From sequence record PV295200.1: 64,000 nt of DNA; one strand, written 5' to 3'. Below the pieces are notes generated by a model. It saw only the letters and a list, made by a program, of their open reading frames with translations, made no database searches and was not told the DNA's origin. The DNA comes from Escherichia phage vB_Eco_BCPEco_001. Shown here piece after piece: positions 30,947 to 37,171 of the stretch. Made by a program: the position numbers and the translations under genes. Numbering within the stretch: the stretch's first letter is position 1; each line of letters opens with the position of its first letter.

Positions 30947-32406
30947 TTCTTAAAATTCTGAACGAAATAGCATCTATTGGTTCAACTAAACAGAAGCAAG
31001 CAATTCTTGAAAAGAATAAAGATAATGAATTGCTTAAACGAGTATATCGTCTGACTTATTCTCGTGGGTTGCAGTATTATATCAAGAAATGGCCTAAACC
31101 TGGTATTGCTACCCAGAGTTTTGGAATGTTGACTCTTACCGATATGCTTGACTTCATTGAATTCACATTAGCTACTCGGAAATTGACTGGAAATGCGGCA
31201 ATTGAAGAATTAACTGGATATATCACCGATGGTAAAAAAGATGATGTTGAAGTTTTGCGTCGAGTGATGATGCGAGACCTTGAATGTGGTGCTTCAGTAT
31301 CTATTGCAAACAAAGTTTGGCCAGGTTTAATTCCTGAACAACCTCAAATGCTTGCAAGTTCTTATGATGAAAAAGGCATTAATAAGAATATCAAATTTCC
31401 AGCTTTTGCCCAGTTAAAAGCTGATGGAGCTCGGTGCTTTGCCGAAGTCAGAGGTGATGAATTAGATGATGTTCGTCTTTTATCACGAGCCGGTAATGAA
31501 TATCTAGGATTAGATCTTCTTAAGGAAGAGTTAATCAAAATGACCGCTGAAGCCCGCCAGATTCATCCAGAAGGTGTGTTGATTGATGGCGAATTGGTAT
31601 ACCATGAGCAAGTTAAAAAGGAGCCAGAAGGCCTAGATTTTCTTTTTGATGCTCATCCTGAAAACAGTAAAGTTAAAGAATTCGCCGAAGTAGCTGAATC
31701 ACGTACTGCATCTAATGGAATCGCCAATAAATCTTTAAAGGGAACTATTTCAGAAAAAGAAGCACAATGCATGAAGTTTCAGGTCTGGGATTATGTCCCG
31801 TTGGTAGAAATATATGGTCTTCCAGCATTTCGTTTGAAGTATGATGTACGTTTTTCTAAACTAGAACAAATGACATCAGGCTATGATAAAGTAATTTTAA
31901 TTGAAAACCAGGTAGTAAATAACCTAGATGAAGCTAAGGTAATTTATAAAAAGTATATTGACCAAGGTCTTGAAGGTATTATTCTCAAAAATATCGATGG
32001 ATTATGGGAAAATGCTCGTTCAAAAAATCTCTATAAATTTAAAGAAGTAATTGATGTTGATTTAAAAATTGTAGGAATTTATCCTCACCGTAAAGACCCT
32101 ACTAAAGCAGGTGGATTTATTCTTGAGTCAGAGTGTGGAAAAATTAAGGTAAATGCTGGTTCAGGCTTAAAAGATAAAGCCGGTGTAAAATCACATGAAC
32201 TTGACCGTACTCGCATTATGGAAAACCAAAATTATTATATTGGAAAAATTCTAGAGTGCGAATGCAACGGTTGGTTAAAATCCGATGGCCGCACTGATTA
32301 CGTTAAATTATTTCTTCCGATTGCGATTCGTTTACGCGAAGATAAAACTAAAGCTAATACGTTCGAAGATGTATTTGGTGATTTTCATGAGGTAACTGGT
32401 TTATGA
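30943..32406 (+). CDS. 30: ATP-dependent DNA ligase
   Basis: 487 aa, same length as T4 ligase; adenylation motif region FAQLKADGARCF. Confidence 0.95.
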   Translation: MILKILNEIASIGSTKQKQAILEKNKDNELLKRVYRLTYSRGLQYYIKKWPKPGIATQSFGMLTLTDMLDFIEFTLATRKLTGNAAIEELTGYITDGKKDDVEVLRRVMMRDLECGASVSIANKVWPGLIPEQPQMLASSYDEKGINKNIKFPAFAQLKADGARCFAEVRGDELDDVRLLSRAGNEYLGLDLLKEELIKMTAEARQIHPEGVLIDGELVYHEQVKKEPEGLDFLFDAHPENSKVKEFAEVAESRTASNGIANKSLKGTISEKEAQCMKFQVWDYVPLVEIYGLPAFRLKYDVRFSKLEQMTSGYDKVILIENQVVNNLDEAKVIYKKYIDQGLEGIILKNIDGLWENARSKNLYKFKEVIDVDLKIVGIYPHRKDPTKAGGFILESECGKIKVNAGSGLKDKAGVKSHELDRTRIMENQNYYIGKILECECNGWLKSDGRTDYVKLFLPIAIRLREDKTKANTFEDVFGDFHEVTGL

Positions 32407-32591
32407 AAGCTTACTTAGAAACAATTGTCGTGGCTCAAAAAGAAGGTGGAGATGTTTCTACTTCTGTATCACAAATCATGATTGAATTTATCGATGCATA
32501 TGCTTATAATAAATTCACAGAAACTTTTGATGCTTATGAAAAAGGTCCAAAGTTTGAAATATATCGTACTCTCTTACCTATAGATTATTAA
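32403..32591 (+). CDS. hypothetical protein
   Basis: 62-aa ORF overlapping ligase stop; followed by hairpin terminator. Confidence 0.4.
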   Translation: MKAYLETIVVAQKEGGDVSTSVSQIMIEFIDAYAYNKFTETFDAYEKGPKFEIYRTLLPIDY

Positions 32592-32607
32592 AGGCCTTCG
32601 GGCCTTT
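32590..32607 (+). terminator. hairpin terminator after gene 30 operon
   Basis: AAAGGCC-TTCG-GGCCTTT followed by AATTTTA. Confidence 0.55.
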
Positions 32608-32612
32608 AATTT

Positions 32613-32620
32613 TATAAATA
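32613..32620 (+). promoter_or_regulatory. late promoter (TATAAATA) for alt
   Basis: Exact TATAAATA 20 nt upstream of alt ATG, followed by AGAGAGGA. Confidence 0.65.
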
Positions 32621-32643
32621 GAATAAACACTAGAGAGGATATG

Positions 32644-34731
32644 ATGGAACTCATTACAGAATTATTTGACGAAGATACTACTCTTCCGATTACAAACTTA
32701 AATCCAAAGAAGAAAATACCACAAATTTTTTCAGTTCATGTTGATGATGCAATTGAACAACCAGGCTTTCGTTTATGTACCTATACATCTGGAGGTGATA
32801 CTAATCGCGATTTAAAGATGGGCGATAAAATGATGCATATTGTTCCTTTTACATTAACTGCTAAAGGTTCAATTGCTAAATTGAAAGGTCTTGGTCCAAG
32901 CCCAATTAATTATATCAATTCAGTTTTTACTGTTGCAATGCAAACAATGCGTCAATATAAAATTGATGCCTGTATGCTCCGTATTCTTAAGTCTAAAACC
33001 GCTGGTCAAGCTCGACAAATTCAAGTTATTGCTGATAGACTTATCCGTAGTCGTTCAGGTGGCAGATACGTCCTTCTTAAGGAACTCTGGGATTATGATA
33101 AAAAGTATGCATATATTCTTATACATCGCAAAAATGTATCACTAGAAGACATTCCAGGAGTTCCGGAAATTAGTACTGAGCTCTTTACTAAAGTTGAATC
33201 GAAGGTCGGTGATGTTTATATCAATAAAGATACTGGAGCTCAAGTAACTAAAAATGAGGCAATTGCAGCATCTATTGCACAAGAAAATGATAAACGTTCT
33301 GACCAAGCTGTAATTGTTAAAGTTAAAATTTCACGTAGAGCAATTGCGCAAAGTCAATCGTTAGAGTCTTCTAGATTTGAAAGTGAATTATTCCAGAAGT
33401 ATGAATCTACCGCAGCTAATTTCAATAAACCTGCTACCGCTCCTTTAATTCCCGAAGCAGAAGAAATGAAGCTTGGAATTAATTCATTAGCTTCTAAAAC
33501 TAAGGCAGCAAAAATTATTGCCGAAGGAACTGCGAATGAACTTCACTATGACTATAAATTCTTTTCAAAAAGTGAGGTTGATGAAGTTTCTGAAAAAATT
33601 AAAGATGTAATTCTTAACGCAATCAAAAATGAACCAACTACTTCAATAAAATGTTTAGAGAAATACGCAGCAGCTGTTAATAAATTCTTTGAAGAATATA
33701 AAGATAATTGGCTTGATAAACATAATAAAACTCGTAAAGGGCAACCAGATGAAGTCTGGGGAGAAATAACTAAAAATGCCTGGAATGCAGCAAAAACTAA
33801 ATTCCTCAAACGAATGATTTATAGTTTTTCTGGAATTGGTGCTGGTCCAATGATTGATATTACTATTGCCCGTGATGGTTCTAAATATACTCCATCACAA
33901 AAGCGCGGCATTAGAGAATATTGTGGCTCAGGATATACAGACATTAATAATCTTCTTTTAGGTCGTTACAATCCAGAACGATATGATGTAATGAGTGAAA
34001 AAGAAATTGAATCTGCTATAAATAATTTAGATTCAGCTTTTGAAAATGGTGACCGTATACCGGAAGGCATTACAGTTTATCGTGCTCAAAGTATGACTGC
34101 TCCTATATACGAAGCACTAGTTAAAAATAAAGTGTTCTATTTCAGAAATTTTGTATCTACTTCTTTAACTCCTATCATTTTTGGACGTTTTGGAATTACA
34201 CATGCTGGTATTGGTCTTTTAGAACCAGAAGCTCGCAATGAATTAACAGTTGATAAAAATGAAGAAGGAATAACTATTAATCCAAACGAAATAAGAGCGT
34301 ATAAAGAAAATCCTGAATACGTTAAAGTTCAAATAGGATGGGCAATTGATGGAGCTCATAAAGTTAATGTTGTATATCCAGGAAGTCTCGGAATAGCAAC
34401 AGAAGCTGAAGTTATTCTACCGCGCGGATTAATGGTTAAAGTTAATAAAATAACTGATGCTTCTAATAATGACGGAACAACATCTAATAATACAAAACTC
34501 ATTCAAGCTGAAGTTATGACCACAGAAGAACTCACCGAATCGGTAATCTATGACGGAGACCATTTAATGGAAACTGGTGAATTGGTTACAATGACAGGTG
34601 ATATAGAAGATAGAGTTGACTTTGCATCATTTGTTTCATCAAATGTTAAACAGAAAGTAGAATCATCTCTTGGAATTATTGCGTCTTGCATAGATATTAC
34701 AAACATGCCTTACAAGTTCGTTCAAGGATAA
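32644..34731 (+). CDS. alt: Alt-family mono-ADP-ribosyltransferase (head-packaged, copy 1)
   Basis: MELITELFDEDTTLPITNL...; C-terminal ART triad: VYRAQ (Arg), FVSTSL (Ser-Thr-Ser), ATEAEVILPRG (Glu-x-Glu); late promoter TATAAATA upstream; ORF track start 32641. Confidence 0.85.
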   Translation: MELITELFDEDTTLPITNLNPKKKIPQIFSVHVDDAIEQPGFRLCTYTSGGDTNRDLKMGDKMMHIVPFTLTAKGSIAKLKGLGPSPINYINSVFTVAMQTMRQYKIDACMLRILKSKTAGQARQIQVIADRLIRSRSGGRYVLLKELWDYDKKYAYILIHRKNVSLEDIPGVPEISTELFTKVESKVGDVYINKDTGAQVTKNEAIAASIAQENDKRSDQAVIVKVKISRRAIAQSQSLESSRFESELFQKYESTAANFNKPATAPLIPEAEEMKLGINSLASKTKAAKIIAEGTANELHYDYKFFSKSEVDEVSEKIKDVILNAIKNEPTTSIKCLEKYAAAVNKFFEEYKDNWLDKHNKTRKGQPDEVWGEITKNAWNAAKTKFLKRMIYSFSGIGAGPMIDITIARDGSKYTPSQKRGIREYCGSGYTDINNLLLGRYNPERYDVMSEKEIESAINNLDSAFENGDRIPEGITVYRAQSMTAPIYEALVKNKVFYFRNFVSTSLTPIIFGRFGITHAGIGLLEPEARNELTVDKNEEGITINPNEIRAYKENPEYVKVQIGWAIDGAHKVNVVYPGSLGIATEAEVILPRGLMVKVNKITDASNNDGTTSNNTKLIQAEVMTTEELTESVIYDGDHLMETGELVTMTGDIEDRVDFASFVSSNVKQKVESSLGIIASCIDITNMPYKFVQG

Positions 34732-34734
34732 ATC

Positions 34735-36792
34735 ATGGAACTTATTACAGAATTATTTGACGGCGCTTCGGCGCCGGTTGTTAACTTAAATCCTAAGCAT
34801 AAAATACCACAAATTTTTGCTATCCAAACCGGCGAAGAAAGCGTGCTTCCTGGATTTAGATTTTGTACATACACCTCTGGTGGTGATACGAATAAAAACG
34901 TTAAGCCAGGCGATAAAATGATGCATATCGTAATGATAGGTGTCAACGAGAAATTATCGCTGGTTAAGCTTAGAAACTTGGGTGGAAATCCAATTGGCGT
35001 CATTAATGCTGTTTTTGATACTGCTCTTCAAACAATGAAGCAGTATAAAATCGACGCATGCTTATTCCGCGTACTAAAAAGTAAAACAAATGGCGCAGCT
35101 CGTCAAATGCAAGTTATTGCTGACCGTTTAGTACGTACTAAAGGAGCAGGTCGATATGTTCTTTTAAAGGAAATCTGGGACTATGATAAAAAGTATGCAT
35201 ATATTATGGTTTACCGTAAAAATGCCAATTTAGAAGACATTCCAGGTGTACCTCCTATTTCAACTGAGTTATTCACAAAAGTTGAATCAAAGGTCGGTGA
35301 TGTTTATGTAGATGTTAAAACAGGTGATGCTGTTCCTAAAGCTGTCGCTGTTGCTGCTTCTATTGCTTTAGAAAATGATAAGCGCACGGATCAAGCTGTT
35401 ATTCAGAAAACTAAAATTAGTCGTCGATTAGCAGCACAAGCTCAATATTCTACTGTTGATGCTTCACTTCAGGGTGATAGCTTCGCTGCTAAGAAATATC
35501 AAGAGTTTGAATCTAAAGTTCCGGTATATAAAGCAGAAGGACCAATGAACTCTGGCGTTATTCAGATTGGTTCAAACTTCAACAAAGGAGCTATCGGTGG
35601 TATGAGAAGTGCTTCTCGTTTTAAATCTAGCGATTATGAACTAGAAAACTTCCGAAATCATATTGCATTAGCCCATGCACGTTTACGTGATCCATCTATC
35701 AAGTTGCAGAGCGATATAACATATCAAGGTTCTCAAGAATATTTAAAGAATAAAGAATTCTTTGATTATAAAACTGATAAAATTTTAAGCGATCTTGCTG
35801 ACATTAATATTTCTAATAGCTTTGATGTTATTAAGAAAATTATCAATGATTTGGTTAAAGGTTCTAATGCTACGCCAGATGAAAAGACAGCTATTATTCA
35901 ATTTGTCATGAATGGCATTTATAAATTGATTAATGAATCTGCTGCTCAGGCATATGAATATGCAAGTACTGAAGTAACTCCAAAAGGACTGACTCAGGCT
36001 GAGTCTGATGTAATTGAAGATTATTGTGCAGATTCATATGTTGAAATGAACTCGTTCCTTTTGGGTAAACCAGATTCTACCCGTGAAGAATATATGGAAC
36101 GAGCTATTAAGCACATCGAGACGTTGGATTCTGCCTTTGCCAAAGGATCAGTTCTTCCTCCAGGAACTACACTTTACCGTGGACAAGAAGTTACCTTTAA
36201 AACTTTGCGTCATAACATTGAAAACAAAATGTTCTATTTCAAGAACTTCGTATCCACATCGCTTAAACCAAATATCTTCGGTGAGCATGGTAAAAACTAT
36301 ATGGCTCTAGATGATTCCGGCGCAGTATTTTCTGGTGAAGGAGAAGGTTCCGTTGATGCAGAAGATTTGATGCATATGGGTAGTCATTCTACATATGCTA
36401 ATGAAGATGCTGAAACTAGCGTGGGTATGGTAATTAAAGGAGCTGAGCGAATCAAAGTTATCGTTCCAGGTCATTTATCAGGATTTCCATCAGAAGCTGA
36501 AGTTATTCTACCGCGTGGAATTTTACTGAAGATTAATAAAGTAAGTACGTACTTTATGAAAGAAACTGCTTATAACAAGTATCTAATCGAAGGTACAATC
36601 GTTCCTCCTTCTGAACAATTAGAAGAATCAGTATATGATGGCGACCATCTAATGGAAACTGGTGAAGTTCGTCCAATGGTTGGATTTAATCAATTCCTTG
36701 TAGAAGAATCAAAAGAAGAGGAAAACGAAGTTTCTCAAATCTTGGCTTCTTTGGTTAACATCAACGGAATGTCTAAAAAGTTCAAAATGTAG
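34735..36792 (+). CDS. Alt-family mono-ADP-ribosyltransferase paralog (copy 2)
   Basis: 685 aa MELITELFDGASAPVVNL...; homologous to copy 1 throughout; ART motifs LYRGQ, FVSTSL, PSEAEVILPRG retained; divergent central region. Confidence 0.8.
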   Translation: MELITELFDGASAPVVNLNPKHKIPQIFAIQTGEESVLPGFRFCTYTSGGDTNKNVKPGDKMMHIVMIGVNEKLSLVKLRNLGGNPIGVINAVFDTALQTMKQYKIDACLFRVLKSKTNGAARQMQVIADRLVRTKGAGRYVLLKEIWDYDKKYAYIMVYRKNANLEDIPGVPPISTELFTKVESKVGDVYVDVKTGDAVPKAVAVAASIALENDKRTDQAVIQKTKISRRLAAQAQYSTVDASLQGDSFAAKKYQEFESKVPVYKAEGPMNSGVIQIGSNFNKGAIGGMRSASRFKSSDYELENFRNHIALAHARLRDPSIKLQSDITYQGSQEYLKNKEFFDYKTDKILSDLADINISNSFDVIKKIINDLVKGSNATPDEKTAIIQFVMNGIYKLINESAAQAYEYASTEVTPKGLTQAESDVIEDYCADSYVEMNSFLLGKPDSTREEYMERAIKHIETLDSAFAKGSVLPPGTTLYRGQEVTFKTLRHNIENKMFYFKNFVSTSLKPNIFGEHGKNYMALDDSGAVFSGEGEGSVDAEDLMHMGSHSTYANEDAETSVGMVIKGAERIKVIVPGHLSGFPSEAEVILPRGILLKINKVSTYFMKETAYNKYLIEGTIVPPSEQLEESVYDGDHLMETGEVRPMVGFNQFLVEESKEEENEVSQILASLVNINGMSKKFKM

Positions 36793-36847
36793 TTTACAAG
36801 TTCCTTATGTTGTGTTATAGTAGTCTTACTGACATAACATGAGGAAC
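36793..36847 (+). repeat. promoter-early stem-loop (PeSL-like) cassette, copy 2
   Basis: Same 55-bp element as 22211-22265 with 2 substitutions; right arm again supplies GAGGA for the downstream ORF. Confidence 0.6.
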
Positions 36848-36852
36848 ACAAA

Positions 36853-37143
36853 ATGAAATCTTCTTTGCGCTTTTTAGGTCAAGAACTTGTAGTTGAAGGC
36901 GTTATTCCTGCTGATAACGTTTTTAATGAAGCAGTTTACGATGAATTTATCAAAATTTTTGGAACAGATAAAAAGTTCGGAATTTTTCCTTCTGAAAATT
37001 TTTCAAAGCCAGAACAGACTGAAAGTATTTTTCAGGGTGTAGTAACAGGTAAATTTGAGTCAGAAGCTCCGGTAAAAATTGAAGTTTATATTGAAGACAG
37101 TTTAGTTGCTTCAGTTGCTGCTTTCATTTCATTCCGTAAATAA
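36853..37143 (+). CDS. hypothetical protein
   Basis: 96-aa ORF downstream of second PeSL-like cassette; GAGGA 8 nt upstream of ATG; followed by bidirectional terminator. Confidence 0.5.
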   Translation: MKSSLRFLGQELVVEGVIPADNVFNEAVYDEFIKIFGTDKKFGIFPSENFSKPEQTESIFQGVVTGKFESEAPVKIEVYIEDSLVASVAAFISFRK

Positions 37144-37149
37144 AAATAT

Positions 37150-37167
37150 GGGGACCGAAAGGTCCCC
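37150..37167. terminator. bidirectional hairpin terminator between convergent ORF 36853-37143 and gene 54
   Basis: GGGGACC-GAAA-GGTCCCC with T-rich tracts on both strands. Confidence 0.65.
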
Positions 37168-37171
37168 ATTG

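Follow-up and report, generated by a model that had tools for sequence, protein, structure and literature searches.

The Alt protein of phage T4 is a prohead-core protein, present in about 40 copies and injected together with the DNA (PMC9026906, PMC2988021), which ADP-ribosylates Arg265 of the RNA polymerase alpha subunit and has a broad target range (PMC2988021). Mass spectrometry has shown that gp21 cuts T4 Alt after ITE-6, which removes six N-terminal residues, and after LTE-619, which removes 63 C-terminal residues (PMC5694885). In this report, we describe the alt locus of Escherichia phage vB_Eco_BCPEco_001 (record PV295200.1), from which a stretch of 64,000 nucleotides (nt), here called the window, was analyzed. 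The locus contains two tandem genes for Alt-type ADP-ribosyltransferases (ARTs): copy 1, which corresponds to alt, and copy 2, a full-length alt.-2. The explanation that best accounts for the evidence as a whole, and to which we assign a probability of about 80%, is that both proteins would be produced late, packaged, trimmed and injected, probably with different substrate ranges, and that the single Alt of T4 represents a derived state.

Duplications of alt have been described before. Nolan et al. (2006) recognized T4 alt.-1/alt.-2 and reading frames of RB49 and 44RR as paralogous duplications of alt, the duplicate in 44RR being full-length (PMC1524935), and a paper from 2026 already deals with this very pair of paralogs (PMC13600099). 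A paper on proteins injected by T-even phages covers Ip1-3, not Alt (PMC12373910), and our literature searches yielded no experiments on copy 2, neither on its activity nor by virion proteomics. Knowledge of injected phage ARTs comes almost wholly from T4, which at this locus is a deletion derivative, and most relatives of T4 retain an intact and selectively maintained second enzyme.

The Two-Gene Locus and Its Remnant in T4

A first-pass annotation of this DNA had proposed two tandem, diverged genes of the Alt family. The two open reading frames (ORFs) occupy the plus strand exactly where it had placed them (32641–34731 and 34735–36792), and both proteins begin with MELITELFD. The ORF of copy 1 contains two in-frame start codons (ATGATGG). 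Translation from the first (32641) gives a protein of 696 residues with the N-terminus MMELITELFD. The second (32644) coincides with the position of the T4 Alt N-terminus, is preceded within a few nt by GAGAGGA, and gives a protein of 695 residues; that of copy 2 has 685. The stop codon of copy 1 (TAA, 34729–34731) is followed by the spacer ATC and by the ATG of copy 2 at 34735, so that the second gene indeed starts at the fourth base after the first.

By BLASTP, the proteins are 41% identical from end to end (E = 8e-159), in agreement with the proposed homology along their whole length. Identity by segment is 68% in the N-terminal 238 residues, 14% in the centre, 35% in the ART domain and 38% at the C-terminus, close to the earlier estimate of a roughly 70% identical N-terminal region and a divergent centre. 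Both proteins (~76–78 kDa) have a common four-part layout consisting of an alpha/beta module, a helical centre, an ART domain and an acidic tail, and the helical centre is, judged from these alignments, the fast-evolving part. The assignment to the Alt family of ARTs proved sound. Copy 1 and copy 2 match phrog_802 end to end (E = 2e-273 and 1.5e-255, respectively), both contain PF03496 (128.8 and 71.8 bits; gathering cutoff 23.4) and both carry the invariant R, S and ExE residues, while a C3/VIP2-type ART fold is predicted for copy 2. PF26846 (Tevenvirinae_ADPRT) is precomputed on the cluster of copy 2 and on both genes of a metagenomic relative, L008. NCBIfam holds no model for copy 1 or copy 2, and Pfam returned only sub-threshold noise on the central helical segments.

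Both genes sit between gene 30/alt.1 and alt.-3/gene 54 with a late promoter upstream, which places them at the Alt locus of the Tevenvirinae. The 4.8-kb locus is 99.9% identical at the nt level to two phage records from 2025 and 97.8% identical to T2, RB32 and RB33. Because of these identities, we regard the window as part of a T2/RB32-like Tequatrovirus, and the region reads as its alt locus in the usual two-gene form. Matches were found in 542 phage records, of which 341 span at least 80% of the locus. The annotation of RB32 lists alt and alt.-2, the latter with the remarks "apparent insertion" and "similar to alt". RefSeq names both genes "Alt-like RNA polymerase ADP-ribosyltransferase" in T2, RB32, RB51, RB3, Sf22 and many others, and the depositors of Sf21 described copy 2 as a putative ADP ribosyltransferase that is not T4 Alt and has an N-terminus resembling T4 Alt.-1. 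By tblastn, 402 records contain copy 2 with an identity of at least 80%, and 401 contain the central segment that is specific to it with at least 90%. With copy 2 in some 400 independent genomes, we can reject the possibility that it is an artefact of assembly or duplication. Since the pair is annotated in reference genomes, occurs in about 400 records and has its paralogy discussed in the literature, it belongs to the known, annotated and common features of T-even phages and is not new. The first-pass annotation had implied that the pair was unusual, with the reservation that the same arrangement in reference T-even genomes would make it ordinary. Such genomes do annotate it, and the gene pair itself is of little import.

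The same annotation noted that T4 is usually described with a single Alt. T4 does have only one intact copy, but it retains a decayed second one. Between alt and alt.-3, T4 contains two tiny ORFs, alt.-1 (61 residues) and alt.-2 (67 residues), whose translations correspond to residues 1 to ~55 and 62 to ~117 of copy 2. By blastn, T4 DNA matches window positions 34683–35082 with 95% nt identity and a single 1-nt gap (Table 1). The alignment then jumps to window position 36773 and onward, and the two aligned segments overlap by the 9-bp sequence CTAAAAAGT. The intact gene contains this direct repeat twice (nt 340 and nt 2039) in the window, RB32, RB51 and Sf21, but only once (nt 2039) in FL34 and WL-3. 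Because CTAAAAAGT stands at both endpoints of the deletion, we conclude that T4 lost 1,699 bp (copy 2 codons ~117–680) by recombination or slippage between the direct repeats. The PHROG families of T4 alt.-1 and alt.-2 match copy 2 at residues 1–56 and 62–117, where copy 2 scores 135 and 129 bits as compared to 78 and 70 bits for copy 1. The T4 ORFs alt.-1 and alt.-2 are thus gene remnants and not small genes in their own right.

How far this loss extends was determined with a 91-nt probe for the T4 junction. The probe is contiguous in 91 of 485 records and split into halves in the rest, which marks the gene as intact. Since copy 2 is intact in most of these records, the two-gene state is that of the majority and also the ancestral one, with the single Alt of T4 as the derived state. 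The remark "insertion" in the RB32 record has the direction of this event reversed.

Predicted Activity, Probable Packaging and Lineages of the Two Paralogs

The orthologs of copy 2 in the window, RB32, FL34, RB51, Sf21 and WL-3 all consist of 685 codons without internal stops (6/6). In the 15 pairwise comparisons among them, the ratio of nonsynonymous to synonymous substitution rates (dN/dS) is 0.036–0.096 at dS values of 0.08–0.27, which is the range also found for copy 1 and its orthologs (0.038–0.080). By this measure, copy 2 is under purifying selection. The catalytic motifs read VYR480AQ, FVS505TS507L and E587-A-E589-VILPRG in copy 1, and LYR482GQ, FVS507TS509L and E587-A-E589-VILPRG in copy 2. 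The arginine, both serines and both glutamates are invariant across five divergent types of ART domain and across 22 homologs down to 42% identity. The earlier statement that both copies keep the catalytic motifs holds, and an inactivating loss was not seen. The diverged relative L008 has the same two-gene layout, and its ortholog of copy 2, which is 74% identical overall (N-terminal module 92%, centre 58%, ART domain 72%), has lost none of the catalytic and cleavage motifs.

An AlphaFold2 model of copy 2 was computed from a 22-sequence alignment with a mean predicted local distance difference test score (pLDDT) of 75.6. The model predicts an N-terminal alpha/beta module (residues ~15–215), an all-helical centre (~240–415, pLDDT 80–92), a C3/VIP2-type ART domain (~420–625, pLDDT 75–92) and a disordered acidic tail (629–685). 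A Foldseek search of the Protein Data Bank (PDB) with this model returned R-S-E ART toxins for all of the top 50 matches, the best being Vis, C3bot, Certhrax, CDTa and VIP2, with target-normalized TM-scores of 0.56–0.70 against single-domain ART chains. A sequence-profile search of the PDB with copy 2 returned the same toxin families. This assignment of the ART fold applies to copy 2 only and refers to a predicted structure. A phmmer search of copy 2 against PDB sequences gave nothing at E < 0.01; neither for Alt nor for a closely related protein has a structure been solved. Comparison of the N-terminal module with the GNAT-like acyltransferase fold gave no confident structural or sequence match. 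Among viral predicted structures beyond the Alt homologs, the model resembles, with modest scores, large uncharacterized proteins of unrelated myoviruses; some of these carry annotated zeta-toxin, deaminase or ParB/Srx domains (E = 1e-7 to 1e-4, query-normalized TM-score 0.4–0.5), which we treat as a lead only.

These data bear on the question as to whether copy 2 is an enzyme at all. It could be a decaying or catalytically dead duplicate that is kept only as a structural or scaffold passenger, like the remnant in T4. Most of the gene is missing from T4 and from 90 further records at no apparent cost, and the literature reports no experimental activity. We consider a dead passenger very improbable nevertheless, given that dN/dS (0.04–0.10) equals that of alt, that six diverged orthologs all have 685 codons, that R, S-T-S and ExE are invariant across the 22 homologs, that the 74%-identical ortholog in L008 retains every motif, and that the predicted ART fold is intact. 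It is because of the low dN/dS, the constant length, the invariant catalytic residues and this predicted fold that we predict copy 2 to be a functional gene.

Both proteins carry, at the level of sequence motifs, gp21 sites at both ends. Cleavage of copy 1 at the predicted sites would release an acidic propeptide of 63 residues and leave a mature protein of 626 residues (70.1 kDa). For copy 2, the propeptide would comprise 54 residues and the mature protein 625 (69.2 kDa). The C-terminal site of copy 2 reads QLEE followed by SVYDGDHLMETGE at the position that aligns with the cut in T4 Alt, and the confidence of the structural model drops from residue 629, which coincides with the predicted cut at 631. 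By analogy with T4 Alt, for which these steps have been shown, both proteins may enter the prohead core by way of the common N-terminal module or the propeptides, as the conservation of these motifs suggests. They would then be trimmed by gp21 after ITE-6 and after an L-x-E motif ~55–63 residues from the C-terminus, and injected with the DNA to ADP-ribosylate host proteins at once, using NAD+. Co-transcription, packaging and gp21 processing of both proteins is the best-supported model, with each step deduced for this phage from its sequence.

Alternatively, copy 2 could be an active ART that is not packaged and serves as a late intracellular modifier in the producing cell, in the manner of ModA and ModB. 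These two enzymes show that ARTs of T-even phages need not be virion proteins (PMC2988021), and packaging in the present phage is itself a prediction. Such a role is improbable, however, in view of the 238-residue N-terminal module that copy 2 has in common with Alt at 68% identity, and of the 92% identity that this module shows between copy 2 orthologs with only 58% identity in the centre. The MELITE propeptide and the L-x-E/S..YDGDHLMETGE site make sense only for a substrate of the prohead protease, and copy 2 appears to be part of the same late operon as alt. We thus favor the model in which both proteins are packaged.

Copy 1 is 100% identical to T4 Alt at residues 1–235 and over the last ~70 residues, with 10–40% identity in the helical centre and 50–77% in the ART domain. 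It reads as a mosaic allele, with the ends of T4 Alt and a strongly diverged centre and ART domain. Centres of the T2 type occur in 319 records and those of the T4 type in 175. Sf21 combines a T4-type alt with an intact copy 2, and vB_Eco_F25 combines a T2-type alt with the T4 deletion junction; the alt alleles assort independently of copy 2. Those who use T2, T6, RB or therapeutic Tequatrovirus phages to study how a host is taken over or its defences are evaded should reckon with two injected ARTs, and with three alt alleles that circulate by recombination, in place of one.

The N-terminal regions of the two paralogs are saturated with synonymous differences (pS 0.6–0.8), and the longest exact run between them is 24–25 nt. 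With these values, we reject recent gene conversion as the cause of their 68% identity.

The age of the two lineages can be estimated by comparison with Dhakavirus. AnYang (NC_055782.1, 864–7124) contains three tandem Alt-like genes (694, 681 and 707 residues) at the corresponding locus, each starting 4 nt after the preceding stop. In its second gene, the catalytic Arg is preceded by Trp in place of Tyr, and its third gene has S-A-S where the others have S-T-S. Copy 1 pairs with AnYang-1 (centre 65%, ART domain 94%, C-terminus 59% identity) and copy 2 pairs with AnYang-3 (45%, 59% and 64%). The N-terminal modules, on the other hand, group by genome, with 68% identity within the window, 66–89% within AnYang and 41–46% across genera; copy 1 and AnYang-1 share only 46% in this module. 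The two paralog lineages thus predate the split between Tequatrovirus and Dhakavirus, and the 94% identity of the ART domains of copy 1 and AnYang-1 suggests a recent exchange of an effector cassette between the genera. In our reading, the effector lineages may be ancient, with recombination in conserved flanks swapping them as cassettes. The N-terminal module seems to track the phage lineage, as expected if it contacts lineage-specific head components. The pattern would fit a design with a delivery module and a variable effector.

Because the lineages of centre and ART domain have been separate since before this split, the two enzymes probably differ in the range of their substrates. One may object that the copies belong to one family with common catalytic motifs and that T4 Alt itself is broad in its targets (PMC2988021), so that both could modify the same proteins, for example RNA polymerase alpha at Arg265, with the second copy serving as an additional dose or a backup. 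A simple dosage duplicate would be expected to be homogenized or lost. Instead, synonymous sites between the paralogs are saturated, and centre (14%) and ART domain (35%) form distinct lineages that have persisted across genera, with each copy conserved relative to its own ortholog. Redundancy is, in our judgment, rather unlikely, and we return to the notion of two distinct substrate ranges. A more specific proposal, which we put forward tentatively and consider possible though not probable, is that Alt.-2 is a second head-packaged, injected ART aimed at host targets that Alt leaves alone, such as a component of defence or translation. If this were true, about 80% of T2/T4-like phages would inject two enzymes side by side, a combination that T4 has lost, and the N-terminal module would be a general head-delivery adaptor for exchangeable effector cassettes, in analogy to polymorphic toxins.

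Expression Signals and Neighbouring Genes

The late promoter motif TATAAATA in front of copy 1 stands at the same spacing in RB32, FL34, RB51, Sf21 and WL-3; in T4, it is shifted upstream by 5 nt. The first-pass annotation was right about this promoter at 32613–32620 but not in reserving such a motif for the start of the first gene, as a second, perfect TATAAATA lies on the plus strand inside copy 1 (34017–34024). All of the T2-type alleles checked have the internal motif, and T4-type alleles lack it (Sf21, with copy 2 intact). Its presence is explained by four codons that spell it, and it may represent either a candidate late promoter or a mere by-product of coding. The idea that copy 2 requires it as a promoter is unsupported, since in Sf21, which lacks the motif, copy 2 is intact and subject to the same selection. 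The window contains 20 occurrences of TATAAATA as compared to 9.0 ± 3.5 expected by chance, mostly on the minus strand downstream of 43 kb, a distribution that fits the late structural-gene clusters in that part.

A terminator scan found no plus-strand terminator downstream of the alt promoter before position 37148. Together with the conserved arrangement of Shine-Dalgarno sequence, stop and start codon between the genes, this agrees with the earlier suggestion of late co-transcription. The 36-nt junction is identical in 7/7 Tequatrovirus loci checked, T4 among them, and its layout would suit translational coupling. Copy 1 and copy 2 probably form one late operon, in which both genes would be transcribed from TATAAATA at 32613 and copy 2 would be translated by coupling or from its own Shine-Dalgarno sequence.

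The hairpin upstream of copy 1 adjoins the late promoter on its upstream side, overlaps the stop codon of alt.1 and is kept in all orthologous loci, including those of T4 and Dhakavirus AnYang. It is a likely terminator for upstream transcription of gene 30/alt.1, and is not among the entries of the consensus terminator scan. The gene alt.1 itself (32403–32591, 62 residues) matches PF24647, "Phage blade protein" (E = 7.5e-29). The gene begins in a 4-nt overlap with the DNA ligase stop codon and has its own stop within the hairpin.

Downstream of copy 2 lies alt.-3 (36853–37143, 96 residues, DUF5498, PF17602), with a promoter-like site of the T4 early type (GTTTACA-17 nt-TATAGT) at 36793–36821, directly after the stop of copy 2. 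C-terminal extensions of T4 Alt.-3 from 96 to 110 or 117 residues are escape mutations against the CmdTAC defence (PMC11618068); the allele in the window has the wild-type length of 96 residues. ARAGORN detected neither tRNA nor tmRNA genes in the window (1–64000).

Table 1. Positions of Features at the alt Locus, Counted from the First Nucleotide of the Window
Feature	Position	Strand	Remarks
GC-rich hairpin AAAGGCC-TTCG-GGCCTTT, then AATTTT	32590..32607	+	Read from sequence
T4-type late promoter motif TATAAATA	32613..32620	+	24–31 nt upstream of copy 1 start
Copy 1, alt	32644..34731	+	695 aa; "T2-type" allele; ORF scan, Pfam, phrog, alignments
Copy 1 Glu6 of MELITE/LFD, predicted gp21 N-terminal site	32659..32661	+	Identical to T4 Alt
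Internal TATAAATA	34017..34024	+	Codons A-I-N-N of AINNLDSAF in copy 1; copy 2 follows 718 nt downstream
Copy 1 catalytic residues	R480 34081–34083; S505/S507 34156–34164; E587/E589 34402–34410	+	Alignments
Copy 1 Glu632 of EELTE/SVIYDGDH, predicted gp21 C-terminal site	34537..34539	+	Counterpart of T4 LTE-619
Junction AAGGA-TAA-ATC-ATG	34724..34737	+	Copy 2 Shine-Dalgarno in last codons of copy 1, stop, 3-nt spacer, start
Copy 2, full-length alt.-2	34735..36792	+	685 aa; ORF scan, BLASTP, Pfam, phrog, structure model
Copy 2 Glu6 of MELITE/LFD, predicted gp21 N-terminal site	34750..34752	+	Motif at aligned position
A5 run, copy 2 codons 54–55	34894..34898	+	A4 in T4, a frameshift that splits alt.-1 from alt.-2
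Left 9-bp direct repeat CTAAAAAGT	35074..35082	+	Copy 2 nt 340–348; left end of T4 deletion
Copy 2 catalytic residues	R482 36178–36180; S507/S509 36253–36261; E587/E589 36493–36501	+	Alignments
Copy 2 Glu631 of SEQLEE/SVYDGDH (L-x-E motif), predicted gp21 C-terminal site	36625..36627	+	Motif at aligned position
Right 9-bp direct repeat CTAAAAAGT	36773..36781	+	Copy 2 nt 2039–2047; right end of T4 deletion
GC-rich bidirectional hairpin terminator	37148..37169	.	Between alt.-3 and converging gene 54; terminator scan

Comparison with Known Systems

Secreted bacterial toxins of the C3 exoenzyme/VIP2/iota-Ia/CDTa/Vis/Certhrax group (PF03496) have the catalytic fold and the R, S-T-S and E-x-E residues in common with the pair described here. 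In contrast to these toxins, which use other delivery domains, the ARTs in the window are fused to an N-terminal module specific to T-even phages and to a helical centre, and are probably delivered in the phage head. T4 ModA and ModB also belong to the R-S-E clade of ARTs and are phage enzymes that modify proteins of the host's transcription and translation (PMC5512222, PMC2988021). Unlike the Alt-type proteins, they are small, early and unpackaged, and have neither the N-terminal module nor the helical centre nor propeptides cleaved by gp21.

Much closer are the alt arrays of Dhakavirus (AnYang, JS10, Bp7, MX01), which occupy the same locus with the same 4-nt offsets between genes and the same four-part architecture, and which include a third paralog type (AnYang-2) beyond the two in the window. 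The closest known gene is RB32 alt.-2 (YP_803136), or the second gene of T2, which is 99.1% identical to copy 2 over 685 residues and agrees with it in position, in its 4-nt offset from alt and in its neighbours (alt.1 on one side, alt.-3 and gene 54 on the other). Copy 2 is another allele of this annotated gene, with no difference of substance.

T4 alt.-1/alt.-2 is the same DNA as codons 1 to ~118 of copy 2, with 95% nt identity. T4 Alt itself (gpAlt, 682 residues), the head-packaged and injected RNA polymerase ADP-ribosyltransferase, has its positional ortholog in copy 1, which is like it in both gp21 sites, the promoter and the ribosome-binding site. Copy 2, in contrast, represents a hitherto uncharacterized paralog lineage apart from T4 Alt, with which it has 41–42% identity and a common architecture, catalytic residues and cleavage motifs.

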